Shown: piece by piece, positions 16,499 to 60,682 of the stretch
Layout of the letters: each line of letters starts with the position of its first letter
Position numbering within the stretch: position 1 is the stretch's first letter
Assembly (NCBI GenBank): GCA_965247115.1
Contig: CBDFGR010000003.1
Location: 1,760,001 to 1,824,000, forward strand
Direction of reading: 5' to 3'
Length of the DNA stretch: 64,000 nucleotides
From: Myxococcota bacterium
GTDB taxonomy: Bacteria; Myxococcota_A; UBA9160; SZUA-336
Made by a program: the position numbers and the translations under genes
The notes under the pieces: generated by a model
Databases searched by the model: none
The model's input: only the letters and a program-made list of their open reading frames with translations
What the model was told of the DNA's origin: nothing

Positions 16499-16620
16499 CT
16501 TGCGGGACCCGGCGCGCGAGCGGTCCTCCCGCGGGTCAGCGACCCGCGGGCCGCTGACGGCCACCCGCCTCCGCTCAGGCCAAAGGCCTTCGCTGCGCGC
16601 GCCGCTTTCGCGGCGCTTGC
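16499..16620 (+). repeat. Dispersed palindromic (REP-like) element, intergenic copy
   Basis: CTTGCGGGACCCGG...GGCCACCCGCCTCCGCTC...CGCTGCGCGCGCCG...CGGCGCTTGC, with nested hairpins. Confidence 0.85.
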
Positions 16621-16677
16621 AGGGGGAGACCTAGGTCACACTTGGACTCTGAGCTCTGTGCGCTCAGGGTAGTTCTT

Positions 16678-18093
16678 CTAGGAGTTGCGTTTTTCGAGGT
16701 AGCGGAGGACTAGGGTGACGAGGCGGCGACGGTCGATCGGTTTTGTTGCGAAGTCGGTACAGCCGGCGTCGAGGCAGCGCTGCCGGTCGCCGGCTAGCGC
16801 GTGGGCTGTGAGCGCGATGATGGGTTGCTCGTAGCCGCTCTCGCGGAGGCGTCGGCTGGCCTCGTAGCCGTCCATGACCGGCATTTGCATGTCCATCAGG
16901 ATCAGGTCGAAGGCCTCGTCCGCTTCGAGAGCGGCGAGTGCGTGATCCACTCCGACCGCGCCGTTCTCCGCGTGGCTGACGTCGAAGCCGGACTTCTTCA
17001 GGGTGAAGGAGATGAGGCGCCGATTGTCCTCTCCGTCCTCCACGAGCAGGATCCTCGCGCCGGGGCCGCTCACCCGCGTCCTGTCGAGAAACGCCCGTGT
17101 GGAGTCGTCCTCCTCGAGGAGCACGTCGCAGGTACGTGCGCGCGCGTCGGGATCCTCGATCATCTCGATCCCGTCGAGCGAGCCCGTGTCCACGCGAACC
17201 TCGAAGCGGCTGCCCTTCCCCTCCGTGCTCTCCACCTCGATGTCTCCACCGAGAAGGCGGGCTAGCTGACGCGAGATCGTCAAGCCGAGACCGGTGCCGC
17301 CGAACGTTCGGCTCATCGATGTGTCGCCCTGCGAGAACGCGTTGAAGATTCCATCGAGGCTGCTGTGCGGAACGCCGACACCGCTGTCCGTCACCCGGAT
17401 TTGGAGGGCGGGCGCTTGCTTCTCCCGGTGCACCAGCTCTACGGTGAGTACGACCGATCCCCGTTCGGTGAACTTGATCGCGTTGCCGACGGTGTGAATC
17501 AGGATCTGCCGCAGCCGGACGGGGTCCGTCCGGATCTCACGGGGGAGCGCTCCGCGGTACTCGATCTCGAAGCGAAGGCCCTTGGCCTCGGCGGAGCTCC
17601 GCATGACGGACTCGATCTCCGCGAGGATCTCGAACGGGGACGTCATCGTATGCTGCACGTCGATCTCCCCGGACTCGAGCCGGGACAGGTCGAGGATGTC
17701 GCTCAGCACCTGCATCAGGTGGGTGGCGTTCCGCTTGATCGTATGCAGTCGCTCGATCCGACTGCTGGGCGCGCGAGAGAGGTCGCCCTCCTCGATCAGC
17801 AGATCGGCGAAGCCGAGGATTGCGGTCATGGGAGTTCGCAGCTCGTGGCTCATGTTCGCAAGAAACTGTGCTTTGGACCGCGCGGCGGCAGCGGAGCTGC
17901 GCGTGGCGTCGAGCAGGTCCTCGAGGGATCTCTTGGAGCCGGAGATGGTCGAGCGCAGCACGCGCGAGATCGCGGCCGAGTCTTGACGGGTCCTGTCGAG
18001 CTCGTCGCTCAGTGCAGCGACCTTCGCGCGCAGCTCCGCGATCTCTTCTAGAAGCTCGCTTCTCGACTTCTCCTGGTCGCCGCACTCCGACAC
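16678..18093 (-). CDS. Hybrid histidine kinase / response regulator (cytoplasmic)
   Basis: FLANMSHELRTP, NAIKFT, GGTGLGL, receiver LLVEDG...MDMQMPVMDG. Confidence 0.92.
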   Translation of the reverse strand: MSECGDQEKSRSELLEEIAELRAKVAALSDELDRTRQDSAAISRVLRSTISGSKRSLEDLLDATRSSAAAARSKAQFLANMSHELRTPMTAILGFADLLIEEGDLSRAPSSRIERLHTIKRNATHLMQVLSDILDLSRLESGEIDVQHTMTSPFEILAEIESVMRSSAEAKGLRFEIEYRGALPREIRTDPVRLRQILIHTVGNAIKFTERGSVVLTVELVHREKQAPALQIRVTDSGVGVPHSSLDGIFNAFSQGDTSMSRTFGGTGLGLTISRQLARLLGGDIEVESTEGKGSRFEVRVDTGSLDGIEMIEDPDARARTCDVLLEEDDSTRAFLDRTRVSGPGARILLVEDGEDNRRLISFTLKKSGFDVSHAENGAVGVDHALAALEADEAFDLILMDMQMPVMDGYEASRRLRESGYEQPIIALTAHALAGDRQRCLDAGCTDFATKPIDRRRLVTLVLRYLEKRNS

Positions 18094-18103
18094 GTAACCA
18101 CCC

Positions 18104-18179
18104 CTTGCGGGTCCCGGCTCGCGAGCGGTTGCGCCACCCGCCTCCGGCTTGCTGCGCGCGCCGTATTCGCGGCGCTTGC
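18104..18179 (+). repeat. Dispersed palindromic element, shortened copy
   Basis: CTTGCGGGTCCCGG...GCCACCCGCCTCCG...GCTGCGCGCGCCG...CGGCGCTTGC. Confidence 0.8.
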
Positions 18180-18237
18180 CAGCGACCGGCCCGTTCGGGT
18201 CCGGCCCACTTCTAGATCGGATGTATCATCGACTCCC

Positions 18238-20310: not shown

Positions 20311-20344
20311 GCCCACTGGTGTAGAATGTGTTCGGAGGTGTTGG

Positions 20345-21919
20345 ATGGAAGTTCCGTTACTGACTGACGACTTTCTGCGTCGTCCCGCGCTGCTGTACCC
20401 GGACAAGCTCGCGATCGTCGATGGCGAGCGCCGCTTCACGTACCGCGAGTACCAAGAGCGCGTGAACCAGCTGTCCCACGCTCTTCTAGAGCTCGGCGTC
20501 GCTGCGGACGATCGGGTCTGTATCTTGAGCCCGAACTCGCACTTCTTCCTGGAGAGCTTCTACGCGACGAGCCAGATCGGCGCGGTGCTCGTTCCGTTGA
20601 ACTATCGACTTGCCGCAGAAGATCACACCTACATCCTGAATCACGCCCGCGTGAAGGTGGCGCTCGTCGACCACGACTACACCGCCGACGTGGATGAAAT
20701 CCGAGCGCAGCTGCCAACCGTGGACACCTGGATCGTGGCTCAGGACTCCGGCAATGCTGCGCCTGGCTGGACCGATTGGGAGACGCTGATCGCGGACGCG
20801 CCCACGACTCCTCCCCCCGGGATCGAGCGGGGGGAGAACGATCTGGTCTCGATCAACTACACCTCCGGAACGACTGCGCGGCCGAAGGGCGTCATGTTGA
20901 CGCACCGCAACTGCTACATCAACGCATACAACCTCATTGCGCATCTCCGTCTCGCCCACGAAGACGTGGAGCTCTGGACACTGCCGATGTTCCACTGCAA
21001 CGGCTGGGGCGGGGTCTACGCGCTCACCGGGATGGGCGGAACCCACGTCGTGTTGCGCGCCGTGGAGGGTGCGGAGATCTTCCGGCTGATCGAGCGTGAG
21101 AACGTCACGTTCGCGTGTATGGCTCCTGCCGTGCTGCGAACGGTGCTCGACTACCCGGAGAAGTCAAAGCACGAGATCGAGACGTGCCCGCGCTTCACGG
21201 TGGCTGGGGCGCCGCCTCCCGCCGCCTTCATCGAGCGGCTGGAGCGGGAGCTCGGTTGGCAGTTCATCCAGATCTACGGCCTAACGGAGACCGCTCCGCT
21301 GCTGACCGTGTCCACGCCCGACTTCGCGACGAAGCACGACGACTACGCTCGCCGCTCGCGCGCTGGTGTTGCAGGGATCGGCGTGGAGCTCGAGGTCCGG
21401 GCACCGGATGGGAGTCGCGTGCCGATGGACGGTGAGACCGTCGGCGAGATCTGCGCGCGCTCGAACGTGGTCTTCAAGGGCTACTGGGAGCAGCCGGAAG
21501 AGACCGCGGAAGCGATCCACGACGGTTTCTTCCACACCGGTGATCTGGCTGTCTGGGACGAGACCGGCAGCGTGCACATCGTGGATCGAAAGAAGGACGT
21601 CATCATCTCGGGCGGAGAGAACGTCAGCTCGGCGGAGGTCGAGGACGCCCTCTACAAGCACGAGGCGGTGCTGGAGTGCGCGGTCATCGGAGTCCCGGAC
21701 GAGAAGTGGGGAGAGACACCGAAGGCACTGATCGTTCCGCGCGAGGGCCACGAGCTGAGCGAGAAGGAGCTCATCGACTTCTGCCGTGAGCACCTTGCGC
21801 ACTTCAAGTGCCCGAGCTCGGTGGAGTTTCTGAGTGAGCTTCCGCGCACGGCAACCGGAAAGCTGCAGAAGTTCCGCTTGCGCGAAAAGTACTGGGGGAC
21901 GGAACGCCGCGTCGGCTAG
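20345..21919 (+). CDS. Long-chain fatty acid-CoA ligase (AMP-binding)
   Basis: YTSGTTARPKG, YGLTET, FHTGD, DRKKDVIISGGEN, PRTATGK. Confidence 0.93.
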   Translation: MEVPLLTDDFLRRPALLYPDKLAIVDGERRFTYREYQERVNQLSHALLELGVAADDRVCILSPNSHFFLESFYATSQIGAVLVPLNYRLAAEDHTYILNHARVKVALVDHDYTADVDEIRAQLPTVDTWIVAQDSGNAAPGWTDWETLIADAPTTPPPGIERGENDLVSINYTSGTTARPKGVMLTHRNCYINAYNLIAHLRLAHEDVELWTLPMFHCNGWGGVYALTGMGGTHVVLRAVEGAEIFRLIERENVTFACMAPAVLRTVLDYPEKSKHEIETCPRFTVAGAPPPAAFIERLERELGWQFIQIYGLTETAPLLTVSTPDFATKHDDYARRSRAGVAGIGVELEVRAPDGSRVPMDGETVGEICARSNVVFKGYWEQPEETAEAIHDGFFHTGDLAVWDETGSVHIVDRKKDVIISGGENVSSAEVEDALYKHEAVLECAVIGVPDEKWGETPKALIVPREGHELSEKELIDFCREHLAHFKCPSSVEFLSELPRTATGKLQKFRLREKYWGTERRVG

Positions 21920-21932
21920 CGGGGCTACCCGA

Positions 21933-22127: not shown

Positions 22128-22168
22128 GCATGCCTCCTCGGACTCGCAGGTGAGGATATCACGAGCCC

Positions 22169-23332: not shown

Positions 23333-23347
23333 CCGCGCATTGTAGCG

Positions 23348-26300
23348 CTATTGGAGGCGGACCCTCTCGCCGCTGCGAAGGTACAGGAGCTCGAGCGCGG
23401 GCGGAGCGGCGTTGGGGAAGGCGCCCGCGACCCCCCGAGCGTAGACCTCCAGCTGCGCTCGGTAGCGCTCGCGAGCGCCGGACTCCGGCTCCCGATCGGT
23501 CTTGTAGTCCGCCACGACCAGGCGCCCGTCAGGATCTCTGTAGAGCAGGTCGATGGTGCCGCTCCAGGCTGTGCCGTCCTGGTCCTTGAAAAGCAGCGGA
23601 AGCTCGCGTCCCACGACCTCGACGCTGGCAAGGTATGCCGGGAGCTCGCTCTCCAGGAGCGAGTTCAGGACCGCCAGGCTGTGCCGCTCGAGCTCGGCCG
23701 GCTCGCCCCCATCGTTGCGGCACACCCGTGTGACCGCGGCGCGTAGCAGGCGAAGGGCGACGGCGCGACTGCGAAAGTCCCAGCGCTCGAGCACCTCGTG
23801 CAGCACGGTTCCGATCTGTCGGCCGCGCGCGGCTCCGCCGACGCCGACGCCGACGGGCGCGCTCGGAACGTCGCTCCCGTCGGACCGCGCCGGGGTTCGC
23901 TCCCCCGCGCCCGCGGGATGGCGAAAGGCCGGCCTCGCCATGGCACGGGCGCGCGCGGCAATGCGCTGGGCTTTCCCCACCGACCGCGAGAGATCCGCGC
24001 GCCCCTTCCGGGTCGGCAGGCGCTGCGCCGCGGGCGACGTCTCCACGAGCCGGTGGCTCACCTCGGGGGCGCCAGGAAGAACGGCATCGTTCGCGAGTCC
24101 CTCGCTCGGGTAGCCCCACGCTGCAAGGTGCTGCACGGGTGCATCCGCCGCGACCCGCTGCCGCGGGCCATGGACCAGGATGAGCCGCTCCGAAGCGCGC
24201 GTACAGGCAACGTAGAACAGGCGCCGGTTCTCGGCACTCTCGTGCTGTGCTTCCAGAGCCTCGCGCACGATGGCGCCGGCGGACAGCGGCCCGGCGGTTC
24301 GCAGCGCAAGGCTCTTGTGCTCGCGGAGCCAGTGCACGCTCGTGGTCGCCTCGCCGCGCGGACCTCCCGCCGGACTGCGTGCGAGGTCGGGCAGGAACAC
24401 GATCGGGAACTCGAGGCCCTTCGCGCCGTGGATTGTCAGCAGCGTGAGCTCTTCGTCGCGGTCCACGGGCGGACCAAGCGCATGCTCGCTGTGCTCGAGC
24501 CAAGGCAGAATCGACGCAATGGTGTGTGCGGAGTCTCGGCGTGCGAGCTCGATCAACGGGTCGAGACGCGCGCGCAGGTTGGCGAGTCGCTGCGTCCCGT
24601 CGGACGCCGCGGCGTGCAGAGCGAGCAGACCAGTCTCCTCCGCCAGCTCGAACAGGAGCGAGTCGAGCGGGCGTTCCAGCGACGCGGTCTGCAGATTACG
24701 CAGAAGTGCGTACGTTCTGGCGATCGCCGGAAAGCGCGCCGGATCCGGCTCCGTTTCGAGATACGACCAGGTGGATCGCGCCCGCTGGGCGGTCGCGGCG
24801 AAGGCCGCCAGCTCGGCATCCCGGACGCCACCAAGGGCGGAGCGCAGCACGCCGAGCACTGCGGGCGCGTCGTCCGGATGCGCCAGAGCCCGCAGCAGCG
24901 CCAGCAGCTGCTGACCTTCGGGGCGGTCGAACAGGTCGCGCCCGGTCTCCAGCGCGTAGGGGATTCCGTGCTCGCGCAGTGCGCCCGTGTAGAGCGGCAC
25001 GCTCGCGAAGGCCCGGAACAGGATGGCGATCTCCGCGGCCGCGATCCGCTCGGCCCGCAGCTCCCGGGCGATCCAGCTCGCGATCGCAGCGGCCTCGTCG
25101 CGGCGCGCGCGGTCCGCGCTGCGCCCGACGTCTCTGCCCACCGTCCAGACCTCCACGCGCGGCTGTCCGTCGCAACTCAGGGGCGGGCGTGCGGAGTGAA
25201 GCCCATCGTAGCCTGAGTAGGCGGCTCCATCGGTTCCGGCGGGAGCATTCAGGAGGGGAGGAAAGAGTCGATCCAGCGGCTCCAGCAGCTCCGGCGGAGC
25301 GCGGAAGCTCCTCGTGAGCGTGAGGCGCTGGCCGCCGGAGCGCTCCACATGAGCCACCGCCATGTGGTACGAGGCCATGTCCGCGCCGCGAAAACGATAG
25401 ATCGCCTGCTTGGGATCCCCCACGATGAAGAGCTTGCCGGGTGCCAGTCGTGTTTCGAAGGCGCGGGCGGCGGGCGGCCCACTCGCGTCCTCGGCCAGGA
25501 AGAAGACGAGCTCGTACTGCAGCGGGTCGGTGTCCTGGAACTCGTCGACCAGCAGGAGCCGGAGGCCGCGCGAGATCCTTCGCCGTACGTCGGGGTAGTC
25601 GGCCAGCATGTTCCGTGTCAGCAGCAGGAGCGCGTTGAACGGGAGCAGGTTGCGCCGGCGCGACTCCGCGAAGACCTGCCGTGCGAACGGGCTCAGGAGA
25701 TCCAGGGCGCGCCCGCACAGCTCGTCATCCACGCGCTCGAGTCGGTCGAGCAGGCGGTGCGCGGCTCTGGCACAGCGCTCGGCCTCGGGGGCGTTCTTGG
25801 AGGTAGGGGGGGGCCCGTCGAGCAAGCCCCGGGACCCTCGCGCTGACTGGAAGCGGGCGCTCCGGAGCTCCACGCGAAACGCCTCGATTCCGCCCGACAG
25901 GAAGGCCTGCAGGACACGGTCGACGACGTGGAGGTAGCTCTCGGGACCCAGGGTCCCGTCACCGCGCACACCCGCATGCGTGGCCAGCTGCGCGCGAATC
26001 AGGGGCTCGAGCAAGGCGTGCGTCGGTGCCAGCTCGGTTCGACCCGCTGGCAGCTCGAAGCTCGCGAGCCGCCACCCGATCTCGCGCAGCTCGCCAAGGT
26101 CGATGCCGCGCAGCACGGCCCGCCAGGCGTCGCGGGGCTCTCCCTCCGGTCCATGACTCCCGCTGAGGAACTTCTCCCAGAGCTCTTCCTGCAGCGCGTC
26201 GAAGAGCGGACCGTCGTCGATCGCGAAGTCGGGGTCGACTCCGGACTCCGCCGGGAAGCGCCGGAGCAGCGCCGCGCAGTAGCCATGGATCGAGTCGATG

Positions 26301-26842
26301 CTGGCGCGCTCGATCTGTGCGAGCAGATGCTCGGCTCGCGAGAGCAGTGCCGTCCGCGAGATGCGCGTTGCAAGAGTCGCGTACACGCGGTCTGCGGTAC
26401 TTGCGAAACCCGCAGGTCTTGCGGGACCCGGCCCACGGGCGGCCGTGGGCCACCCGCCTACGCTCGCCTGCGGCTCGCTGCGCGCCGCGCCTGCGGCGCG
26501 GCTTGCGGGTGCCTGGTCGTGCAGTGGCTGGTCGTCGCTCGGGGTTTGGGATCTCGGGGGGCGCGGTGGGTTTGAGGGGATTGGGTCCGGGGGGTTGTCC
26601 GGGTGCGTTGCCAGATTCACCAGTCGTGCGAGGGCTGCTTCGAGGCGGGTGCGTAGCTCGGTGGCGGCTCGCTCTGTGAAGGTGATCGCGGTGATTTCGG
26701 TCATGTCGAGCTCTTGGTCGACGAGTTGGGTGAGGAGGCGCTCGATGAGCAGGCTCGTCTTGCCGGTGCCGGCTCCGGCGACGACGATGACGTTGCGATC
26801 GTAGCTCTGGACGGCGCTCTGCCGGGCTTCTGCGTCGCTCAT
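23348..26842 (-). CDS. addA: AddA-like UvrD helicase / PD-(D/E)XK nuclease
   Basis: AGAGTGKT, ITFTERAA, LVDEFQDT, VGDPKQAIYRFRGAD, TIHGAKGLEF, YVACTRA, C-terminal IDLL...DYKTD; ATG at 26842 overlaps the addB stop. Confidence 0.85.
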   Translation of the reverse strand: MSDAEARQSAVQSYDRNVIVVAGAGTGKTSLLIERLLTQLVDQELDMTEITAITFTERAATELRTRLEAALARLVNLATHPDNPPDPIPSNPPRPPRSQTPSDDQPLHDQAPASRAAGAARSEPQASVGGWPTAARGPGPARPAGFASTADRVYATLATRISRTALLSRAEHLLAQIERASIDSIHGYCAALLRRFPAESGVDPDFAIDDGPLFDALQEELWEKFLSGSHGPEGEPRDAWRAVLRGIDLGELREIGWRLASFELPAGRTELAPTHALLEPLIRAQLATHAGVRGDGTLGPESYLHVVDRVLQAFLSGGIEAFRVELRSARFQSARGSRGLLDGPPPTSKNAPEAERCARAAHRLLDRLERVDDELCGRALDLLSPFARQVFAESRRRNLLPFNALLLLTRNMLADYPDVRRRISRGLRLLLVDEFQDTDPLQYELVFFLAEDASGPPAARAFETRLAPGKLFIVGDPKQAIYRFRGADMASYHMAVAHVERSGGQRLTLTRSFRAPPELLEPLDRLFPPLLNAPAGTDGAAYSGYDGLHSARPPLSCDGQPRVEVWTVGRDVGRSADRARRDEAAAIASWIARELRAERIAAAEIAILFRAFASVPLYTGALREHGIPYALETGRDLFDRPEGQQLLALLRALAHPDDAPAVLGVLRSALGGVRDAELAAFAATAQRARSTWSYLETEPDPARFPAIARTYALLRNLQTASLERPLDSLLFELAEETGLLALHAAASDGTQRLANLRARLDPLIELARRDSAHTIASILPWLEHSEHALGPPVDRDEELTLLTIHGAKGLEFPIVFLPDLARSPAGGPRGEATTSVHWLREHKSLALRTAGPLSAGAIVREALEAQHESAENRRLFYVACTRASERLILVHGPRQRVAADAPVQHLAAWGYPSEGLANDAVLPGAPEVSHRLVETSPAAQRLPTRKGRADLSRSVGKAQRIAARARAMARPAFRHPAGAGERTPARSDGSDVPSAPVGVGVGGAARGRQIGTVLHEVLERWDFRSRAVALRLLRAAVTRVCRNDGGEPAELERHSLAVLNSLLESELPAYLASVEVVGRELPLLFKDQDGTAWSGTIDLLYRDPDGRLVVADYKTDREPESGARERYRAQLEVYARGVAGAFPNAAPPALELLYLRSGERVRLQ
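26418..26506 (+). repeat. Dispersed palindromic element inside addA coding frame
   Basis: CTTGCGGGACCCGGCCCACGGGCGGCCGTGGGCCACCCGCC...CTCGCTGCGCGCCGCG...GCTTGC. Confidence 0.85.
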
Positions 26843-31562: not shown

Positions 31563-31573
31563 CGCGACCGGTC

Positions 31574-34500
31574 CTACCGGAAGTCGTGAGATAGTGGGAG
31601 CTGGGCGCGCAGGCTAGCGCCGTCCAAGCGCTCGAACCTGCGTGCCTGCACGTGGACCACGCCTTCCTGGTTCTGAAGCGGACCCTCGATGAGCAGCAGC
31701 CCGGCGCCGTGAATCACGGCGCGGTGCTGATGGAACATGTCGGGCACCACGATCGCGTTCGCGTGGCCGGTCTCGTCCTCGAGGGTGATGAAGAGGAAAC
31801 CTTTTGCCGTACCGGGCCGCTGGCGCACGATCACCACACCGGCAGTGCTTACCCATTGACCATTGGGCGCCTGCCGCAGCTCTTTCGCTGTCAGCACCCC
31901 CCGCTCGTGGAGCTCCTTGCGGAAGTGCGTCATCAGGTGCGCGCCCGTCGTGAGGCCGGTCCCCCGGTAGTCGGCTACGGTTCGCTCGAAGTCGTTCATC
32001 TCCGGAAGCGGGGAGGGCGTGCTGGAGCTGGCTCCAGAGAGCAGTCCACCCTGGAGAGCGGCGACCTGCCACAGGCCCTCGCGGCGGTCGAGCCCGAGGG
32101 CCGCACAGGCGCCGATCTCGGCCAGCCGTTCGAGCTCGTCGCGCTGCAGCTCGGTGCGCTGGGCGAGATCGGAGACCGAGCAGAAGGGCGATTCCGCCGC
32201 GATGCGGAGCCCCGCCTCCTCACGCAGACCGTCGACGTAGCGGAAGCCGAGACGCACGGCGCCATCCGCAGTCATGTGGCACAGCCAGTCGCTCGCTTGC
32301 ACGTCGACCGGCAGCACGCGCACCCCGTGACGTTGGGCGTCCTTGACCAGGGTCGCGGGGCTGTAGAAGCCGAGCGGGTAGTTGTTGAGCATGGCGCAGA
32401 GAAAGCAGCTCGGATGGTGTGCGTGGATGTAGGCGGAGGCATAGGCCAGTAGCGCGAAGCTCGCGGCGTGGCTCTCCGGAAATCCGTAGAGCGCGAACGA
32501 GCCGATCTGCTTCACGATCTGTTCCTGCACCGCTCCCTCTATACCGTGCTCGCTCATACCCTGGCGCAGCCGTGCCAGGATCGAGTTCATGCGCTCGACG
32601 GAGCGCTTGAAGCCCATGGCGCGGCGCAGCTCCTCCGCTTCGCCGCCGCTGAAGCCTGCGATCGTCATCGCCATCCGCAGCAGCTGTTCCTGGAACAGGG
32701 GAACACCGAGGGTGCGTTCGAGTATGGGAGCGAGATCGGGGTGGGCGTAGGTCACATCTTCGCGCCCCGCACGGCGCTTGAGGTATGGGCGGACCATATC
32801 GCCCGTGATCGGCCCTGGGCGGATGATGGCTACGGAAACGACGAGGTCGTAGAAGCAGGTGGGTTGCAAACGTGGAAGCGTCGCCATCTGTGCGCGGCTC
32901 TCCACCTGAAAGACGCCCACGGTGTCCGCCTTCTGCAGCATGGCGTAGGTCTCGGGATCGTCAGGAGGAATGCGCGCAAGGTCGAGGTCGACGCCGTCGT
33001 TGACGCGGATTAGCGGGAGCACTTCTTCCAGCACCGCCATCATGCCGAGACCGAGCAGATCGATCTTGATGATGCCGAGGTCTGCGCAGTCCTCCTTGTC
33101 CCACTGCACCACGGTGCGTCCCGGCATGCGCGCGGGCTCGAGCGGAACCACTTCGTCCAGGCGTCCCCTGGAGATCACCATGCCTCCGGAGTGCTGGCCG
33201 AGGTGGCGCGGCAGGTGCTGGATCTCCGCGACCAGGCGCACGAGCTGACGGATGCGCGGGGCCTCCGAGTTCAGGCCGCCCTTCTCGAGCTGCTCCTCCA
33301 GCGCGTCGTGGTGGTCGATGTACTCGTGGCGCGAGATCAGCTTGGCCAGGCGGTCGATCTGCTCGGGCGCCAGGCTGAGGACCTTGCCCATCTCGCGCAC
33401 GGCGCTCTTCGGCCGATAGGTGATCACGTTCGCGGTCATGCCCGCGCCGTGCGGCCCGTATCGCTCGTAGGTGTACTGCAGGATCTCCTCGCGCCGATCA
33501 CCAGAGGGCAGGTCGATGTCGATGTCGGGCCACTCGCCGCGCTCTTCGGAGAGGAAGCGTTCGAAGAGCAGCCCGTAGCGCACGGGATCGATGGCCGTGA
33601 TACCGAGCGCGTAGCACACCAGGCTGTTGGCCGCGGAGCCACGGCCCTGACACAGAATCCCGCGCGCCCGGCACTCGCGCACGATGTCCCAGACGATCAG
33701 GAAATAGCCCTCGAGCTCGAGCCGCCCGATGATCTCGAGCTCGTGCTCCAGCTGCACGCGCACGTCCGCCGGGATCTTGCCTGCGAAACGCTCGCGCGCC
33801 CCCCGTTCGGAGAGCTGGCGGAGTACACCAGAGAGTGTCTCTCCTGGACCCAGGGGAAAGTCGGGAAAGTGGTAGCCGAGGTTCTCGAGTGTAAACTCGC
33901 AGCGCTCGGCCACGCGCAGCGAGTTCGTGAGCGCCTGGGGCAGGTCGTGGAACCGGCGCGCGAGCTCGTGCGTCGTGAGCAGGTGACGTTCGGCGTTGGG
34001 GAGCAGCAGGCGACCGGCACGGTCGAGCTCGGTCTTGTGCTTGAGGCAGGTGAGCGCGTCGAGCAGGCGCTTGCCGCCAGGCCGCGCGTGACGCACGTCT
34101 CCCGTGGCGAGGGGGGCGATCCCCGTCGCGAGCAGGGCTCGGTTGTGCCGCTCCTGGTCGGGATCGCGGTGCCGCTGGAGCTCCCCGAAGGCGTCCAGAC
34201 CGAACACGTCGCGCAGCGGTTGGGCGAGGGCTGGCTCGCGCACGATCGCGACCAGCCCTTCTCGGTGCTCGCGCAGAGCGTCCCAGCTGACGCGGCTGTG
34301 GGGCTTCTCGAAGTCGCGGTGCCCCAGCGTGAGCAGACGGGAGAGGTTGCGGTAGCCCTGGCGATCCTTCACGAGCAAATTGACACGTCCACCAGCCGGG
34401 GGCGGGTCCGTCTTGCCCGCCTTGCGGGTCCCGGCCCGCGGGCGGCCGCGGGCCACCCGCCTTCGCTCGGCTTCGCCTCGCTGCGCGCGCCGCGAGAGCG

Positions 34501-34738
34501 GCGCTTGCTGGTTGCCCTGCAGGGTTACGCGTGCGCCGATGATTGCGCGCAGGCCGTGTTTTTTGGCGGCGCTGTGAAAGCGTGGGATCCCGTAGAGACC
34601 GTCGACGTCGCTGAGCGCGAGCGTTCCGTGTCCGAGCTCTGCTGCGCGCTCTACGAGGTCCTCGGGAAGCGAGCTTCCCTCCAGGAAGCTGAACGCGCTG
34701 CGCATGCCGAGCTCAATGAAGTTAGTCGTAGATGCCAT
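31574..34738 (-). CDS. dnaE2: Error-prone DNA polymerase DnaE2 (ImuC)
   Basis: SAFSFLEGSS, GRGSAANS, PDIDID, GQHSGG, YGFPESHAASF, RQRPGTAKG, C-terminal SHDFR. Confidence 0.93.
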   Translation of the reverse strand: MASTTNFIELGMRSAFSFLEGSSLPEDLVERAAELGHGTLALSDVDGLYGIPRFHSAAKKHGLRAIIGARVTLQGNQQAPLSRRAQRGEAERRRVARGRPRAGTRKAGKTDPPPAGGRVNLLVKDRQGYRNLSRLLTLGHRDFEKPHSRVSWDALREHREGLVAIVREPALAQPLRDVFGLDAFGELQRHRDPDQERHNRALLATGIAPLATGDVRHARPGGKRLLDALTCLKHKTELDRAGRLLLPNAERHLLTTHELARRFHDLPQALTNSLRVAERCEFTLENLGYHFPDFPLGPGETLSGVLRQLSERGARERFAGKIPADVRVQLEHELEIIGRLELEGYFLIVWDIVRECRARGILCQGRGSAANSLVCYALGITAIDPVRYGLLFERFLSEERGEWPDIDIDLPSGDRREEILQYTYERYGPHGAGMTANVITYRPKSAVREMGKVLSLAPEQIDRLAKLISRHEYIDHHDALEEQLEKGGLNSEAPRIRQLVRLVAEIQHLPRHLGQHSGGMVISRGRLDEVVPLEPARMPGRTVVQWDKEDCADLGIIKIDLLGLGMMAVLEEVLPLIRVNDGVDLDLARIPPDDPETYAMLQKADTVGVFQVESRAQMATLPRLQPTCFYDLVVSVAIIRPGPITGDMVRPYLKRRAGREDVTYAHPDLAPILERTLGVPLFQEQLLRMAMTIAGFSGGEAEELRRAMGFKRSVERMNSILARLRQGMSEHGIEGAVQEQIVKQIGSFALYGFPESHAASFALLAYASAYIHAHHPSCFLCAMLNNYPLGFYSPATLVKDAQRHGVRVLPVDVQASDWLCHMTADGAVRLGFRYVDGLREEAGLRIAAESPFCSVSDLAQRTELQRDELERLAEIGACAALGLDRREGLWQVAALQGGLLSGASSSTPSPLPEMNDFERTVADYRGTGLTTGAHLMTHFRKELHERGVLTAKELRQAPNGQWVSTAGVVIVRQRPGTAKGFLFITLEDETGHANAIVVPDMFHQHRAVIHGAGLLLIEGPLQNQEGVVHVQARRFERLDGASLRAQLPLSHDFR
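34421..34508 (+). repeat. Dispersed palindromic element inside dnaE2 coding frame
   Basis: CTTGCGGGTCCCGGCCCGCGGGCGGCCGCGGGCCACCCGCC...CTCGCTGCGCGCGCCG...CGGCGCTTGC. Confidence 0.85.
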
Positions 34739-36305
34739 CGATGAACCAGCTCTCGTCTTCCATGTTTCGATAGAGGCGGTAGACACCGCCGTCTGAGAGC
34801 TCCACGTCGTAGTAATCGCGTGCGAAGCGACTCTCTCCCCACCACTCTCCGAAGAGCCGCCAGGGGCCCGCGCACTGGAGTATCTGTCTTGTGGGACCCG
34901 GGCGGCCTTGTGGGGCCCGGCGCGCGGGCGGCCGCGCGCCACCCACCTCCGCTCGCCTCCGGCTCGCGGCGCTTGCGGGGGAGGCGTCCTCGATGGGCGT
35001 GATCTGCTCGGGCCGTTCTGCCCCTCGGACCCGCACCGGTCGTGGTGGCCGCAGGGATCGGAATGCAAGGGTGGCGCGGCCGGGGGGATCCGCATCGCAG
35101 AGGATGGAGGCGCCGTCTCTGGTAGACGCTTTTCGGTCGAGCACGAAGCTCTCCACGCGCGCGGCGTCGAGCTGGTGGGTGTCGCGTACGCCGGGGGCGC
35201 CGATCTGTCCCTGTCCGCACAGTGCCTCGAGGCGGGCGACGGTCAGGGCGAGCTCGGCCGGCTCGGGAAGCGGGGGGAGAAAGAAGTCGAGCTGGACCGC
35301 CTCCAGGTCGCCGGGGGTCGCGATCGCACGAGCGCGTTCCACCGGCTCCGGCGGAGGATCTCGCTCGAGCACGAGCCGCGCGAGCGAGACGAGCACGGGA
35401 ACTTCCAGCGTCGGCGCGGCCAGCTCCATGTCGCGCGCGTGAGTCTGACCGCCCTCGAGCACCAGCTCGAGCCGCAGCTTGCGGACCGCCAACCCGCGCA
35501 CTCGCAGCCTGCGCGTAAGGCGATCCAGTACCCCGCGCAGCAGGAATCCCAGCGCGTCGAGGTTGTCGATCCCGTACTCGGACTCGGCACCCTCTTCGAA
35601 GCGCAGTACGGCGGGTGTGGGACGGAACGGCTGCAGGTCCTCGCCGCACGCGCGCCGTACGAGCTTGATGCCTTCCTCGCCAAGCCGTGCCCCGGTTGGT
35701 CCCCGGGGCAGCTGCGCGAGCTCTCCGAGCGTGCGCACGCCCCAGCGCCAGAGCCGGTCGACCTCCTGCTCGGGTGGATCGAGCAGGTCGAGCGGCAACG
35801 GATTCAGGAAGGCGGCGACCTCCTCGCGCTTCACGATCCTTCCACCCCCGCAGTGTCGCGCCGCCAGCTCCGCCACCGTCCGCGTCGGCCCGACGCCGAG
35901 CCGCGTCTGCTCCAGTCCCACGTCGGTAAGCCGCGCTTCGAGAGCGGTCAGCAGGCCCCGCTCCGTCGGGAACAGCGCCCCCGTCCCGTCGAGATCGAGA
36001 AACGCCACTCCCTCGCGTGCCTTCTCCACCCGCGGACTGACCGAGCTCGCCACGTCGAGCAGCGCCTGCTCCGCAGAGCGAATGCCCTCGAGAGAGAGCG
36101 TGCACACCTGCAGGTCCGGCTCCACGGCCTTCGCCTGGGTTACCGTTATCCCCCGCATCCAGCCCGCCACGATCGGCGGGCTCTGGGTCCGGCCTCGCGG
36201 TCGGGTCTCGATGATCGCCAGCGGCTTGCCCCGCAGCTCCGGATCCCCCCGCAAGGCCGCCGCGAGCGGCAAGTCCTGTATGTGCAAGCATGCGACCCGT
36301 TCCAT
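34722..36305 (-). CDS. imuB: ImuB, inactive Y-family polymerase homolog
   Basis: SPRVE, WGVRTLGELAQLP, QLDFF, GPWRLFGEWW, RDYY, WFIDGIYD; overlaps the dnaE2 start. Confidence 0.85.
   Translation of the reverse strand: MERVACLHIQDLPLAAALRGDPELRGKPLAIIETRPRGRTQSPPIVAGWMRGITVTQAKAVEPDLQVCTLSLEGIRSAEQALLDVASSVSPRVEKAREGVAFLDLDGTGALFPTERGLLTALEARLTDVGLEQTRLGVGPTRTVAELAARHCGGGRIVKREEVAAFLNPLPLDLLDPPEQEVDRLWRWGVRTLGELAQLPRGPTGARLGEEGIKLVRRACGEDLQPFRPTPAVLRFEEGAESEYGIDNLDALGFLLRGVLDRLTRRLRVRGLAVRKLRLELVLEGGQTHARDMELAAPTLEVPVLVSLARLVLERDPPPEPVERARAIATPGDLEAVQLDFFLPPLPEPAELALTVARLEALCGQGQIGAPGVRDTHQLDAARVESFVLDRKASTRDGASILCDADPPGRATLAFRSLRPPRPVRVRGAERPEQITPIEDASPASAASRRRAEVGGARPPARRAPQGRPGPTRQILQCAGPWRLFGEWWGESRFARDYYDVELSDGGVYRLYRNMEDESWFIDGIYD
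34888..34976 (+). repeat. Dispersed palindromic element inside imuB coding frame (5' motif duplicated)
   Basis: CTTGTGGGACCCGG..CTTGTGGGGCCCGG...GCCACCCACCTCCGCTC...CGGCGCTTGC. Confidence 0.8.
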
Positions 36306-42332: not shown

Positions 42333-42767
42333 ATGTCCGTGACCATGACGAGAGCGGAGCGCGAGGCCTTCCTGGCCGACTTGCACGTGGGGATCCTCAG
42401 CATTCCCGAGGCGGACAGGGGCACGCTCGCGGTTCCGATCTGGTACGACTACGAGCCCGGGGGGGAGCTCTGGATGCTCACTGGCAGGGGGTCGCGCAAG
42501 GGGAAGCTCATTGGGAGCGGCACCCGCCTCAGCCTCTGCGCTCAGACCGAGCAGGCGCCGTACAAGTACGTGAGCGTCGAGGGCCCGGTCGTGGGGATCG
42601 AGCCCAGCGATCTGGAGAAGCACCTGCGTCCCATGGCCCGCCGCTACCTCGGTGTTGAGGGAGGCGACCAGTACATCGACGCGATGCCCGCGGATGGCGA
42701 CGACACGGGCATCGTGGTCCGCATGCGCCCCGAGCGCTGGCTCACGGTGGACTACGCCAAGGCCTAG
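42333..42767 (+). CDS. Pyridoxamine 5'-phosphate oxidase-like flavin/F420-binding protein
   Basis: EREAFLAD, VPIWYDY, SRKG, YKYVSVEG, RPERW. Confidence 0.8.
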   Translation: MSVTMTRAEREAFLADLHVGILSIPEADRGTLAVPIWYDYEPGGELWMLTGRGSRKGKLIGSGTRLSLCAQTEQAPYKYVSVEGPVVGIEPSDLEKHLRPMARRYLGVEGGDQYIDAMPADGDDTGIVVRMRPERWLTVDYAKA

Positions 42768-42810
42768 CGAGCGCGCGCAGCTCGGCGAAGCCGAGCGACA
42801 GCGGGTGGCC
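42768..42810 (-). repeat. Partial copy of dispersed palindromic element
   Basis: Reverse complement GGCCACCCGCTGTCGCTCGGCTTCGCCGAGCTGCGCGCGC. Confidence 0.6.
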
Positions 42811-42842
42811 TTCCTGACCTTGTCCAGGGGAGGGAAGAGCGA

Positions 42843-43484
42843 GTGCCGCGACGATCGCACAAAGCCGTACTGTTCGACCTCGACGGAGTCCTGATCGACT
42901 CCTACGAGGTCTGGTTCCAGCTCCTGAACGCGGCCAGCGTGGAGTATCGGGCAGCCCCGATCTCTCGCGAGACCTTCCACGAGTGCTGGGGACAGGGAAT
43001 TCAGGCCGACATCCAGCGGTTCTTCCGAAAGCAGGGAGTCGAGGAGCTCGAGGTGTTCTATGACAATCACTTCATGGACTTCGCAGAGCAACTCTCGGTG
43101 AACCCTGATGCCGGGAACGTCTTTGCGTCCCTCGAGGAACGGGGGATCCCGAGCGCGGTGATCACGAACACGCCGGCCGGGTTGGCGGGGCGCATTCTGG
43201 AGTACGCGGCGCTTGCGCCTGAGGCTCTCGTTGGAGGGACGGACGTGCAGGAGGCGAAGCCGGCGCCGGACATGGTGCTGCGCGGCTGCGAGCTGCTGGG
43301 GGTGCGTCCCTCGGAGGCCGTCGTAGTCGGTGATTCGGACTTCGATCGGGTTGCAGCGCGCGCGGCCGGAGTGCCGTTTGCGGGCTTCGGGATCGAGGGC
43401 GACGTCGAGCTCGAGCGCCTGACGGACCTGATCGCGTACGTCGCGCCGAGCCGATCCTTGACAGGGTTCTCAGAAGCCGATTAG
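42843..43484 (+). CDS. HAD family hydrolase
   Basis: LFDLDGVLIDS, VITN, KPAPD, VVGDS. Confidence 0.9.
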   Translation: MPRRSHKAVLFDLDGVLIDSYEVWFQLLNAASVEYRAAPISRETFHECWGQGIQADIQRFFRKQGVEELEVFYDNHFMDFAEQLSVNPDAGNVFASLEERGIPSAVITNTPAGLAGRILEYAALAPEALVGGTDVQEAKPAPDMVLRGCELLGVRPSEAVVVGDSDFDRVAARAAGVPFAGFGIEGDVELERLTDLIAYVAPSRSLTGFSEAD

Positions 43485-48429: not shown

Positions 48430-48538
48430 GCGGGGGCGGCGCGCAGTGAGGTGCTAGCCGAACGTAGAGCGGGTGGCCGTCAGCGGCCCGCCGGTCGCTG
48501 ACTCGCGGGAGGACTGCTCGCGCGCCGGGCCCCGCAAG
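48430..48538 (-). repeat. Dispersed palindromic element overlapping the 3' end of imuA
   Basis: Reverse complement CTTGCGGGGCCCGGCGCGCGAGCAGTCCTCCCGCGAGTCAGCGACC...GGCCACCCGC closely matches the copy at 16499. Confidence 0.85.
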
Positions 48539-49281
48539 AAGCCCAGGCGGAAGTCGCAGGCTCGGTCCGCTGGGCCAGTGCGGTCGCGCTGGAGTGTGAC
48601 TCGGTTTTCGAGTCCCTCGAAAAGTCCTCCCTCGAAGTGGGCTCGACGTCGCTCGGTGTATAGTCCCTGCGTCGCAAACGAGCCCGCTACCCTTTCGGAG
48701 CCCAGCACGAGGGCCGTCGCGCGCGACTCTCGTACGGCCCGCAGTAAGCGGGACCACACGGAGCCGCCCATCTTCCCCAGAGCTCCCCGGGAAGCCCCTT
48801 CCAGGTCGAGTGTTACTACAGCAAAGCCCGTTTTGAGCAGAAGCTCTGCAGAGCGCAGGGCCGCGCGCAGCTCGGGAGGGCGCACCCAGAGGACGCGCTG
48901 GAGGTCCACTCCCGCCCGCATGAGAAAGCGTGGATCAAGTGCGTTCGGCAGATCGATCCAGCCGACGAGCTCCCCGCGAGCCGTGGCCCCGGCGGCCATG
49001 CGATAGGCCAGTGCCGTTCGTCCCGAGGAGATTTCTCCGCACACCTCGATGAGGCGTCCCTGTCGGAGGGCGGTGGGGCGGAGGAGTGCGTCCGGGAGAA
49101 ACGCGGTCTCCTCCGCCCCGGGGTTGGTGCTGGTTTTGCGATTGAGAAGTGAACCCGGGAAGCCGAGAGCTCCCTGTACTGGGGGAACCGGAACTCCCAG
49201 CCGAACTCGATCCGAAAGCCCTGCCTCGTGCAGGGCCTCCATCAGTTCTTGAGTTCGGCTTGTGGCTGGCCCCGACCTCAC
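48454..49281 (-). CDS. imuA: ImuA-like RecA-fold protein
   Basis: GRLIEVCGEISSGRT (degenerate Walker A), WIDLPNALDP, GVDLQRVLWVRP, ALRSAELLL; alternative ATG start at 49242. Confidence 0.72.
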   Translation of the reverse strand: MRSGPATSRTQELMEALHEAGLSDRVRLGVPVPPVQGALGFPGSLLNRKTSTNPGAEETAFLPDALLRPTALRQGRLIEVCGEISSGRTALAYRMAAGATARGELVGWIDLPNALDPRFLMRAGVDLQRVLWVRPPELRAALRSAELLLKTGFAVVTLDLEGASRGALGKMGGSVWSRLLRAVRESRATALVLGSERVAGSFATQGLYTERRRAHFEGGLFEGLENRVTLQRDRTGPADRACDFRLGFLRGPAREQSSRESATGGPLTATRSTFG

Positions 49282-55580: not shown

Positions 55581-55585
55581 CTGTT

Positions 55586-55625
55586 CTTGCGGGTCCGGGC
55601 CGCGGGCCACCGCCTCCGCTCAGGG
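55586..55625 (+). repeat. Truncated copy of dispersed palindromic element between convergent genes
   Basis: CTTGCGGGTCCGGGCCGCGGGCCACCGCCTCCGCTCAGGG. Confidence 0.65.
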
Positions 55626-55632
55626 TGCCTGT

Positions 55633-58047: not shown

Positions 58048-58070
58048 TTGGCTGATCCACTCGACGGCCT

Positions 58071-58302: not shown

Positions 58303-59574
58303 ATGAGGGAAAATAGCGCCACACAGGACCATGCGGCTTTGAGCTTGCGCTACGAGGAGGTTCGCCGCTGCACCGAAGAGCTCTGTCGGCCTCTCTCTCC
58401 GGAGGACTGCGGCGGCCAGTCGATGCCCGATGCGAGTCCGGTGAAATGGCACCTGGCCCACACCACGTGGTTCTTCGAGGTCCTTGTGCTCGAGCAGATC
58501 CTGCCCGGCTATCGCGAGTTCGACCCTGTCTTCCGAACGCTGTTCAACTCCTACTACAACGCCGTCGGCGAGCAGCACCCGAGACCCGGCCGTGGACTTC
58601 TGACACGTCCGCCGCTCGAGCAGGTGTTCGAGTACCGGGACTACGTGGACAAGCGGGTGCTCGGCTGTCTCGGCGGCGGCTACGACTCGTCTCACAAGCT
58701 GGCTCGGGTGGTGGAGCTGGGGCTGCACCACGAGCAGCAGCACCAGGAGCTTATCCTCACCGACATCAAGCACTTGTTCTCGTGCAACCCGCTGCGCCCG
58801 GCGTACTCGGACTGCCCCACGCTCCAGCAGCGCGAAGCAGGAGCGCTCGACTGGCTCGCGTATCCCGAGGGTGTGCGCGAGATCGGACACTCGGGTAGAG
58901 GCTTCGCGTTCGACAACGAGTCGCCACGGCATCGCGTCTTTACCGAGGCCTACGGGCTTGCGTCGCGGCCCAGCACGAACGCGGAATACCTCGAGTTCCT
59001 GCGGGACGACGGATACTCGAGGCCCGAGCTGTGGCTGTCCGACGGCTGGGACCGCGTGCAGCAGCTGGGCTGGGAGGCGCCTCTCTACTGGGAGCGCTCC
59101 GGAGTGGACTGGACACTCATGACGCTCGGAGGACTGCGCGACCTGCAGGGCGAAGAGCCCGTCTGCCATGTCAGCTATTACGAGGCGGACGCCTTCGCGC
59201 GCTGGGCGGGCGCTCGTCTGCCGAGCGAGGCAGAGTGGGAGCTCGCGGCCGCCGCGCTGCCCCGGGCCGGAAACTTCGCCGAGTCGGGCTTGCTCCATCC
59301 TGCGGTGGGCTCGGGCGCCGAGGGAGAGCCTCTGCAGCTCTTTGGCGACGTCTGGGAGTGGAGTGGGAGTGCGTACGCCCCCTACCCGGGCTTCCATCCC
59401 CTGGAAGGCGCTCTCGGCGAGTACAACGGCAAGTTCATGTCCAATCAAATGGTCCTGCGCGGGGGCTCGTGCGTGACCCCCGAGTCCCACGTCCGCGCGA
59501 CGTACAGGAACTTCTTCGCACCCGAGGCGCGCTGGCAATTCAGCGGGATCCGACTGGCGAGAGACCCGGGCTGA
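58303..59574 (+). CDS. egtB: Ergothioneine biosynthesis sulfoxide synthase
   Basis: SMPDASPVKWHLAHTTWFFE, FNSYY, HEQQHQEL, FGE-like domain RLPSEAEWE, GDVWEW, YRNFF. Confidence 0.9.
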   Translation: MRENSATQDHAALSLRYEEVRRCTEELCRPLSPEDCGGQSMPDASPVKWHLAHTTWFFEVLVLEQILPGYREFDPVFRTLFNSYYNAVGEQHPRPGRGLLTRPPLEQVFEYRDYVDKRVLGCLGGGYDSSHKLARVVELGLHHEQQHQELILTDIKHLFSCNPLRPAYSDCPTLQQREAGALDWLAYPEGVREIGHSGRGFAFDNESPRHRVFTEAYGLASRPSTNAEYLEFLRDDGYSRPELWLSDGWDRVQQLGWEAPLYWERSGVDWTLMTLGGLRDLQGEEPVCHVSYYEADAFARWAGARLPSEAEWELAAAALPRAGNFAESGLLHPAVGSGAEGEPLQLFGDVWEWSGSAYAPYPGFHPLEGALGEYNGKFMSNQMVLRGGSCVTPESHVRATYRNFFAPEARWQFSGIRLARDPG

Positions 59575-59576
59575 CA

Positions 59577-60593
59577 TTGTCCCTACTGGCCCGCGAGATC
59601 CACGATCAGCCGAGGGTCCTGGCGCGATTCGGCCGGCGGGAGGGGAAGCGGGTACGCGCCCTGGGAGCCAAGCTCGGGCGTTCGTCACCGGTCGGCGTTC
59701 TGGTCGCCGCGCGCGGCAGCTCCGATCACGCCGCCATCTACGCCAAGTATCTGTTCGGGCAGCGCCTCGGCCTGCCGGTGGCGCTCGCCGCGCCCTCGCT
59801 GATCACGGCGTACGAGGGTGGGCTCCAGCTCGAAGGCTGGCTCACTCTCGCCATCTCCCAGTCCGGCGCCTCACCGGACGTGGTGTCGGTCATCGCGTCC
59901 GCGCGCAGCCAGGGCAGCCAGACCCTGGTGATCACCGATCGACAGGACTCCGACCTGGCCCAGAACGCTGATGACGTCATCCCGCTTCACGTCGGAGGGG
60001 AGCGCAGCGTGGCCGCAACAGGGACCTTCAGTACCTCTCTCTACGCCCTCGCGCACCTCTGCATAGGCTGGCAGGGCTGCGATGCGGATGCGGCGCTGCT
60101 TGACGAGGTTCCCGAGCGTCTCGGGTGCGCGCTCGAGTGTGAGGACCAGGTCCGCTCGCTCGCCGCCAGCCTGGCCGGCAAGGACTCGGTGGTGGTGATC
60201 GGGCGCGGCTTCGGCTTCCCGATCGCGCTCGAGTGGTCTCTCAAGCTGAAAGAGATCGCGGCTGTCTCCGCCGAGGCGTTCTCTGCTGCGGATTACCGGC
60301 ACGGTCCTATCGCCCTCGCAACAGGGGGGGCTCCCGTGCTGCTCTGCGACACCGCCGCGTCGACGCGCCAGGAGTTATGCGAGCTCGAGCGGGAGCTCGC
60401 GAGCAGATCCGTGGACGTGCACCGCATCTCCGATACGGAAGAGGCCACGGTCACCATTCCGCTGGGCCCCGAGTGGCTCGCGCCGATTCCCGCGGCCGTG
60501 CCTGGCCAGCTGCTCGCCTACCACGTGGCGCGCGCTCGGGGCATGGACCCCGACAGCCCGCGCGGCCTGCGTAAGGTGACGCAGACCTTGTAG
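59577..60593 (+). CDS. SIS-domain sugar isomerase (GlmS C-terminal-like, no glutaminase domain)
   Basis: EIHDQP, ARGSSDHA, ISQSGASPD, ERSVAAT, LKLKE, HGPIAL, PRGLRKVTQT. Confidence 0.87.
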   Translation: MSLLAREIHDQPRVLARFGRREGKRVRALGAKLGRSSPVGVLVAARGSSDHAAIYAKYLFGQRLGLPVALAAPSLITAYEGGLQLEGWLTLAISQSGASPDVVSVIASARSQGSQTLVITDRQDSDLAQNADDVIPLHVGGERSVAATGTFSTSLYALAHLCIGWQGCDADAALLDEVPERLGCALECEDQVRSLAASLAGKDSVVVIGRGFGFPIALEWSLKLKEIAAVSAEAFSAADYRHGPIALATGGAPVLLCDTAASTRQELCELERELASRSVDVHRISDTEEATVTIPLGPEWLAPIPAAVPGQLLAYHVARARGMDPDSPRGLRKVTQTL

Positions 60594-60682
60594 TGTGGGA
60601 CCCGGCCTGCGGGCGTCCGCAGGCCACCCACCTCCGCTCAGGGCTTCGCCCCTCGCTGCGCGCCCCGCTTCGCGGCGCTTGC
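60594..60682 (+). repeat. Dispersed palindromic element directly after a stop codon
   Basis: TGTGGGACCCGG...GGCCACCCACCTCCGCTC...CTCGCTGCGCGCCCCG...CGGCGCTTGC. Confidence 0.85.

Follow-up and report, generated by a model that had tools for sequence, protein, structure and literature searches.

Coding copies of the element at the locus

The DNA analysed here (the window, 64,000 nucleotides of contig CBDFGR010000003.1 from a Myxococcota bacterium) carries a dispersed repeat, referred to below as the element, that is built of three hairpins and lies mostly in intergenic DNA, often with its 5' end just after a stop codon. It is gained, lost and flipped between sister species, joins neighbouring genes at two places, and in rare cases is inserted in frame in genes whose orthologues have empty sites, with an excess in imuB and dnaE2. 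The source genome (G000, 5.17 Mb) was compared with that of a sister species (G002) and with other genomes of the family and class. A sequence-only reading of the window had proposed one dispersed family at nine positions, and all nine hold members of it; the model used to score the window copies (R1) matches six at E≤3.4e-8 and three weakly because they are partial.

Three of the copies in the window form putative in-frame protein loops with empty sites in orthologues. An addA/recB-like helicase-nuclease gene (23348..26842, minus strand; Pfam UvrD and PDDEXK_1, with NCBIfam recB/addA below cut-off) contains an antisense copy in frame at 26416..26506 (plus strand, E≤3.4e-8), which supplies about 30 aa of a ~58-aa insertion. 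The insert is absent from all 20 other genomes with a match, and a 15-bp relic of the 5' end is kept in the sister species. Beside the element, at 26510-26600, is a second, proline-rich insert of ~28 aa that is also absent from orthologues and is not derived from the element. The error-prone DNA polymerase gene dnaE2 (31574..34738, minus strand; NCBIfam NF004225, 1213 bits, cut-off 939) has an antisense copy in frame after residue ~76 (34419..34508, plus strand, E≤3.4e-8). This copy occupies a variable loop of the PHP domain that maps to the gap between residues 75 and 95 of Pol III alpha (2hpi). It is present in the source genome and the sister species and absent in the other 17 of 19 aligned orthologues, and the empty site shares 8 bp of identity with the 5' end of the element. 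The gene at 34722..36305 (minus strand) is Y-family polymerase-like (Pfam IMS, with Pol IV-like hits below cut-off) and is probably imuB, given its position upstream of dnaE2. Its copy, at 34886..34976 (plus strand; R1 match 34905-34976, E≤3.4e-8), is 5'-stuttered and internally deleted and occupies the C-terminal loop 2, where it is antisense and in frame. Contigs aligned to 16300-36200 show that close strains have the copies; small indels occur at 34412 and 34496, and none of the joints listed skips a copy.

A fourth coding copy, a long variant at 48436..48540 (minus strand, E 0.005), replaces the stop codon of imuA (48454-49242; RecA/ImuA-like hits) and adds a C-terminal tail of ~27 aa. Orthologues terminate near the insertion point, and in the sister species ImuA ends in a tail that is shorter and arose from the same copy. 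The suggestion that the element creates new protein loops therefore fits addA, dnaE2 and imuB, for which the proposed comparison of orthologues found empty sites, but not imuA. In the source genome imuA sits 12 kb from imuB-dnaE2 (31574-36305); it is on another contig in the sister species and adjacent in several relatives.

Genome-wide, five genes of the source genome have host domain sequence on both sides of a copy (addA, dnaE2, imuB, purD and cheW), and insertion in frame with empty orthologues is seen in addA, dnaE2, imuB and purD. Units in purD number none in the sister species, one in one database protein and three in tandem in the source genome; a protein database search with the purD insert returned purD itself only. 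The idea that all coding copies fall in repair genes is thus too broad, since purD, cheW, a linker between lpxI and a Gfo/Idh/MocA gene, and a relic at 4381-4407 in a non-repair open reading frame (ORF) do not fit it; what stands is the excess in imuB and dnaE2.

A hot spot in imuB and dnaE2

Of 31 family genomes, 28 yielded an imuB gene, and eight of 30 family imuB sequences contain the element. Loop 2 has antisense copies in G000 and G002 and a sense copy in G001, loop 1 is occupied antisense at locus L181 and sense in G019, and another loop-2 site is filled antisense in G011, G023 and G026, with a relic-like stretch in G027. Because the copies differ in site and orientation, they appear to represent at least five independent insertions. 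This count enters the site of G011, G023 and G026 once, as it needs two changes on the tree and may be one gain with losses, and leaves out an insert in G054 that is element-like by eye and has no model hit. At least two independent insertions are likewise indicated for dnaE2, where a second site near residue 825 is filled in G004 and G009. At this same site G036, from another family, has a module of hairpins 2-3, and G043 a weak partial one.

Copies elsewhere are seldom inside genes. A first survey covered 119 matches at 100 loci in five genomes, out of 224 hits altogether and with 12 at contig edges; a single copy was internal, and it lay in imuB. A second took in 85 loci of seven genomes of g10, one genus of the family (every hit in six of them and, for G011, the best 30 of 52), with 10 at edges. 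Four internal copies resulted, of which three were in imuB and the other in a small unknown protein. Together, 5 of 204 copies in these 12 other genomes are internal, four of the five in imuB, as counted by a classifier that can overlook copies in atypical genes and overlooked the imuB copy of the sister species. For two out of three independent events to hit a single 1.6-kb gene, p is about 0.002 after multiplying by gene number, and for three of five coding copies of the source genome to be in repair genes it is 3e-4, assuming that repair genes make up 3% of coding DNA; both values are post hoc. The excess in repair genes is real, and lies specifically in imuB and dnaE2.

In an alignment-based model of ImuB (mean predicted local distance difference test score, pLDDT, 70), the insert (residues 172-202, pLDDT about 50-78) is flanked by two beta strands that are modelled with confidence, and pLDDT stays below 50 in the second loop prone to insertions; a single-sequence fold (pLDDT 34) was discarded. 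Both orientations, two loops and different frames are represented among the imuB copies. The loops of dnaE2 and imuB that take the element are occupied by unrelated inserts or short tandem repeats in G005, G003, G045, G033, G053 and G046, and tolerance of the loops is therefore part of the explanation.

Structure, copy number and position of the element

Copies were counted with an iterated nhmmer model, which found 206 at 179 loci in the source genome and none in the reversed genome; a broader search gave 187 loci above the best decoy. The unit spans GTCTTG to GCTTGC, has the 5' consensus C-N-N-G-T-CTTG, and is 77-125 bp long, typically ~90 bases. The nine window copies belong to one family but do not all share the full architecture ascribed to them: 18104 is without hairpin 2, 42768 without the 5' half, 55586 without the 3' half and 48430 without the GCTTGC end. 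As had been proposed, structure is conserved over sequence. The stems covary, with two-sided changes at 13 of 24 predicted pairs in 49 copies, and at 20 of the 24 in 119 copies from five other genomes in an alignment fitted to the model. The minus strand gives the more stable fold in 125 of 129 copies, and on this strand the triloop of hairpin 2 reads c(GNA)g in 98 of 137, with all four bases occurring at N. Loops of the c(GNA)g type are extra-stable in DNA. From these loops and the better folding of the minus strand we infer that the folded form is single-stranded DNA of that strand.

The claim that the element colonises intergenic DNA and ORFs alike is contradicted by its distribution: 158 of the 179 loci fall between genes, 10 within called genes and 11 across gene ends, although 85% of the genome is called coding (gene classes are from our own gene caller). 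A stop codon lies within 10 nt of the 5' end at 55 of 157 loci, and of the 3' end at 6 of 167. Partial 5' duplicates (stutters) occur at 35 of 157 loci compared to 2.9% of random stretches. Neighbouring copies less than 500 bp apart are arranged tail to tail in 22 of 25 pairs and never head to head, and tandem arrays in the source genome reach six units.

The other window copies follow this pattern. A long-hairpin-1 variant at 16497..16620 (plus strand, E≤3.4e-8) has its 5' end immediately behind the stop codon of a DUF4097 gene (15615-16496), and a full copy at 60590..60682 (plus strand, E≤3.4e-8) overlies the stop codon of a SIS-domain gene (59577-60593). The short copy at 18102..18179 (plus strand, E≤3.4e-8), between divergent genes, has an empty site in the sister species. 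A degenerate copy of hairpins 2-3 only, at 42767..42854 (minus strand, E 0.06), lies by the stop of a PNPOx-like gene, and a 5' half copy at 55584..55622 (plus strand, E 0.23) just past the stop of an asparaginase-family gene. All nine listed positions hold copies, but 42768 and 48430 are coordinates of 3' ends, and two copies had been overlooked: the relic at 4381-4407, and a degenerate intergenic copy at 14440..14524 (minus strand; nhmmer 16.2, just above the best decoy), which has a counterpart at the orthologous site of the sister species.

No Rfam family matched in the window, and viral contigs contained no match to the element. A plasmid blastn search returned 25 records with a best E of 0.3, none significant, and the two inspected were chance matches.

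Gene fusions through the element

In 28 of 30 family genomes lpxI and the Gfo/Idh/MocA gene overlap at a stop/start junction. In the other two, the source genome and its sister species, the element replaces this junction and joins both genes in frame. Six database clusters of 632-653 aa carry the element linker, at differing lengths, in an lpxI-gfo fusion; the search that gave them used a length filter under which unfused forms stay hidden. The linker is missing from five fusions that are more distant (39-57% identity), and separate lpxI and gfo forms exist at 84-90% identity. An apparent third fusion in G029 is a frameshift artefact, and a metagenome scan with stand-alone LpxI as the query gave only relatives at 30-43%.

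The second joint is in the window, where an ORF of 563 aa (3731..5422, plus strand) fuses DUF455 (ferritin-like; Pfam PF04305) to a downstream domain from the next gene. The joint is the 27-bp 5' relic at 4381..4407 (plus strand); at this site the sister species has a full degenerate copy and two separate frames. The joint was spanned without an indel in four of four runs from four studies. Among 23 other genomes that have a match, 18 have the pair split and five have it as one piece, so this fusion is easily tolerated. The DUF455 fusion probably arose by insertion of the element followed by erosion. In these two natural cases a short repeat merges neighbouring genes across a stop/start overlap so that they share a frame, which goes further than the repeat-to-ORF fusions in the sections consulted of the review by Delihas 2011 (PMC3184786).

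Range and turnover among relatives

An exact pattern of the element has 111 matches in the source genome, 47 in the sister species, one each in G001 and G011, and none in the other 57 of 61 genomes. The covariance-model scan of genome and relatives proposed in the sequence-only reading reaches further, with hits in 23 of 31 family genomes and weak hits in 8 of 69 other genomes of the class. Other pattern matches are in records titled Myxococcota or Deltaproteobacteria. Each genus has its own hairpin-1 variants.

Comparison with the sister species, covering 0.8 of its 5.8 Mb, made 70 of the 179 loci comparable: 38 are shared, 20 are empty and 12 hold a copy in the opposite orientation, six of these resembling single-copy flips. 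Six of the 20 empty sites contain relics, and some are therefore losses rather than pre-insertion states. This turnover supports the view of the element as a non-autonomous mobile family. At the alaS-pilT-like junction (C3:1329560-1329810 in the source genome, and relatives) copies are found in three genera, each of the local variant, and the junction may be either an old site or a repeated target.

Search for a mobilising enzyme

As already noted from the sequence, no mobilising enzyme was found in the window. Elsewhere, the search for a RAYT/IS200-like gene flanked by the element gave none in the source genome and a candidate association in another, G017. There, modules of the element lie 250-400 bp upstream of all four genes of a second, IS200-like Y1 family (loci L323, L326, L309 and L317). 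At one gene they make up a full unit and at three an array of hairpins 2-3, of which one is inverted and repeated downstream. One full unit at these loci directly follows the 3' end of a tRNA. The same Y1 family has 16 copies in the source genome (e.g. C3:117662-118306), those viewed having a common upstream TAGAAAGCCCTAATCTACAC motif, and 14-17 in G040 and G047.

The source genome also has a RAYT-like Y1 gene (C3:2176073-2179396, L001) flanked by inverted repeats of ~30 bp (the terminal inverted repeat, or TIR, repeat). There are 93 copies of this repeat at 63 loci, including 24 inverted pairs that enclose a conserved spacer of ~110 bp, perhaps derived from the 3' end of the RAYT-like gene. 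RAYT-like homologues in other genomes of the class have their own inverted repeats. Forty of the 63 TIR-repeat loci are within 300 bp of the element, the two share 39 intergenic regions compared to 3.9 expected, and a fixed linker is present in 32 copies in the source genome, all beside the element. The TIR repeat is also common in the sister species (23 in 0.8 Mb), though its enzyme was not found there, and absence of HUH/Y1 genes from draft genomes is therefore weak evidence.

Other candidates were rejected. IS91/Y2 enzymes are represented by one truncated gene only, 39.6 kb from the nearest copy, and no Y2 transposase with ori/ter ends matching the repeat was found; this IS91-family transposase (L092, C2:1293083-1293940 of the source genome) is next to an IS110-like gene. 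The CTTG of the element is like the IS91 target. Genes of the GIY-YIG, DUF559 and HNH types are 1.3-70 kb from the nearest copy with no link to it, and reverse transcriptases do not co-occur with the element across family genomes.

Proposed origin and movement

We give about even chances to the following reading: the element is a non-autonomous repeat of the kind of the repetitive extragenic palindromes (REPs) and BRE, likely moved as folded single-stranded DNA, in trans, by a Y1/HUH nuclease, and its rare in-frame copies are concentrated in loops of imuA-imuB-dnaE2. The minus DNA strand would fold and a visiting HUH enzyme would copy the element, after which would come local slippage, giving the 5' stutters and tandem arrays, and deletion. 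Coding copies would persist only in loops that tolerate changes of length, and only with the reading frame intact. The excess in the mutasome would then likely stem from tolerant loops in rarely expressed, damage-induced genes, with perhaps extra exposure of these genes during their transcription under DNA damage. In favour of this reading are the intergenic bias, the 5' ends close to stops, the tail-to-tail pairs, the stable minus-strand fold with its GNA triloops, the turnover against the sister species, the Y1 genes of G017 with element modules upstream, and the TIR repeat that clusters with the element. The unrelated inserts in the same loops fit tolerance.

Several observations weigh against this reading. 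None of six Pfam Y1 hits in the source genome has the element within 1.5 kb, none of the 16 copies of the second Y1 family has it within 2.7 kb, and the RAYT-like gene is frameshifted. The 25 Y1 loci retrieved from genomes other than G017 are without a hairpin-3 module. Y1 genes occur in 9 of 32 family genomes and in none of the 12 of genus g10, all of which have the element, and G040, G047 and G007 are rich in second-family Y1 genes yet have no model hit. No recurrent nuclease family is found among 645 neighbouring proteins, in clusters judged by eye without a Pfam scan. Neither a clean target duplication nor a fixed cut site is seen at the filled/empty pairs, whose comparators are diverged (~77-92% identical in DNA), and filled sites often replace target bases. 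Finally, tolerance alone does not obviously explain why copies are rare in other loop-rich genes.

The main rival to an HUH enzyme acting in trans dispenses with a dedicated enzyme. The hairpins would stall replication forks and host replication or repair would copy them by template switching or gene conversion, possibly through ImuA-ImuB-DnaE2, whose own genes would be the likelier targets if the complex works close to the place of its synthesis. This we regard as possible, on balance doubtful. The excess of 5' stutters, the six-unit arrays and the none, one or three units of purD are as expected of it, as are the 8 bp that the empty dnaE2 site has in common with the 5' end of the element, the replaced target bases and the genus-specific variants of hairpin 1; imuB, unlike any Y1 gene, is present in nearly all family genomes (28 of 31). 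Slippage, however, accounts for local duplication and not for how copies reach new, unrelated sites or come to be flipped. A 5' end fixed at stops and the link with Y1 genes in G017 point to an enzyme, and action of the mutasome in cis is speculation. Selection could instead keep the copies, as mRNA structures after stops that affect stability or termination, or as imuB/dnaE2 loops that tune mutagenesis, as Di Nocera et al. speculated. Closeness of 5' ends to stops, strong covariation, sites common to several genera (alaS-pilT among them) and an lpxI-gfo fusion kept in frame in six protein clusters despite different linker lengths would suit this explanation, which we nevertheless consider improbable: the transcribed (plus) strand has the less stable fold, the imuB copies differ in orientation, loop and frame so that no common peptide is selected, sister genomes lose or are without copies, and the length filter behind the six clusters hides unfused forms.

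Retron-type retroposition was reportedly once proposed for the repeats of a myxobacterium that resemble multicopy single-stranded DNA. For the element, retroposition via RNA by a retron-like reverse transcriptase could suit the sense position just after stops and the 5' stutters, if 3' untranslated regions were reverse transcribed. Of 32 family genomes only 4 have reverse transcriptases, the element is missing from G013 with its eight, and the sole one of the source genome is 362 kb from the nearest copy. The missing co-occurrence largely refutes this route, which is very improbable. A broader reading, which we think unlikely, is that the element and BRE, as a permuted cousin, belong to a wider modular family of DNA hairpins that moves during the DNA-damage response into genes then transcribed, or is copied by ImuA-ImuB-DnaE2 near its own genes. 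The mutasome operon would then be a true target and more than a tolerant one, and insertion followed by erosion at stop/start overlaps a general route to gene fusion.

Relation to known repeats

According to the portions consulted of Hot et al. 2011 (PMC3110155), BRE is a GC-rich, multi-hairpin repeat of ~90 bp that is mostly intergenic with some copies in genes, its tandem arrays vary between strains, and a transposase is not named there. A BRE module in list S1 of that paper, GCAAGC-variable stem-GCGCAGCG, equals the minus-strand form of hairpin 3 of the element, and BRE also has GGCCGCCC, GGACGCCC and GGCCGTCC, loop variants that occur in hairpin 1; both comparisons were made by eye and unscored. 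In the same material the BRE module order looks permuted, BRE has A/T runs and is without the hairpin 2 with tandem GA and a GNA loop, and it is reported at 1-29 copies in Betaproteobacteria, whereas the element reaches ~200 copies and is found in Myxococcota and Deltaproteobacteria records. Kinship of the two is likely from the shared modules, and the Y1 family of G017 would be the first candidate enzyme for BRE-like repeats.

The part of Di Nocera et al. 2013 (PMC3733652) available to us describes REPs inside DnaE2, RecBCD, UvrD and UvrA genes of several species, states that intragenic REPs favour repair genes, and speculates on mutator effects. With the BRE copies inside genes, these examples leave the statement that coding palindromes are known mainly from Rickettsia unsupported. 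The element resembles the GTAG/CGTC REPs of that account in its bias to positions downstream of genes, in its inverted pairs, in ends that can provide a stop codon, and in intragenic copies in DnaE2/RecBCD/UvrD genes, and CGTC REPs are likewise described as having no dedicated transposase. The TIR repeat and RAYT-like gene of the source genome match its description of TIRtrons. REPs, as presented there, are single hairpins of 20-40 bp, compared to three hairpins and 77-125 bp. The element also has no terminal GTAG/CGTC tag, starting with GTCTTG and ending with GCTTGC, and no element-flanked enzyme gene in the source genome. Set against REP/REPIN systems with a cognate RAYT the picture is mixed, with no Y1 gene beside the element in the source genome and element modules by 4 of 4 in G017.

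In Rickettsia, RPE palindromes inserted in frame add 25-50 residues to conserved proteins, as summarised in the passages seen of PMC3733652 and PMC3184786. The likeness to the element, drawn from these descriptions only, is in-frame palindromic insertion; the difference is that coding copies are a small minority of the element. The MITEs (miniature transposable elements with inverted repeats; ERIC, Correia and RUP), covered together with repeat-to-ORF fusions in the excerpted text of PMC3184786, are also non-autonomous, short and structured and fuse with reading frames. The element differs in having no terminal inverted repeats (GTCTTG and GCTTGC are not reverse complements), and no target duplication was found at filled/empty pairs, whose comparators are diverged. 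It works like REPs and BRE, and is not filed as a member of either because the tests for a REP tag and for MITE ends failed.

The question of a match to a described family with coding insertions thus has a divided answer: the kind is described, and this family's own sequence was not found in print. Within the literature outside subscription journals, no description of the sequence or of repeats in imuB was found. The kind of repeat, including copies inside dnaE2/recBCD-type genes, is already known; what is added are the counted imuB/dnaE2 hot spot and the two fusions, along with the likely kinship with BRE and one enzyme lead. Di Nocera et al. 2013 could only speculate on why intragenic REPs favour repair genes. 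The hot spot is a countable case, in which seven or more independent in-frame hits fall in two genes of a single operon, sister alleles occur with and without the insert, and other genes have very few hits, which makes tolerance, targeting and selection separable by experiment.

Other features of the source genome

Long stretches free of copies lie beyond ~1.79 Mb on contig C2 and beyond ~2.39 Mb on C3, and the region of C3 from 1.6 to 2.4 Mb is dense in copies. Two other repeats are present in the genome. One, with core CAGCGTCCCTCGCAGC, has 59 hits, none near the element. The second, with core GGAGTCGGAGGTCGGG, has 66 hits, 15 of which are near the element, sometimes at sites where the sister species holds the element itself.

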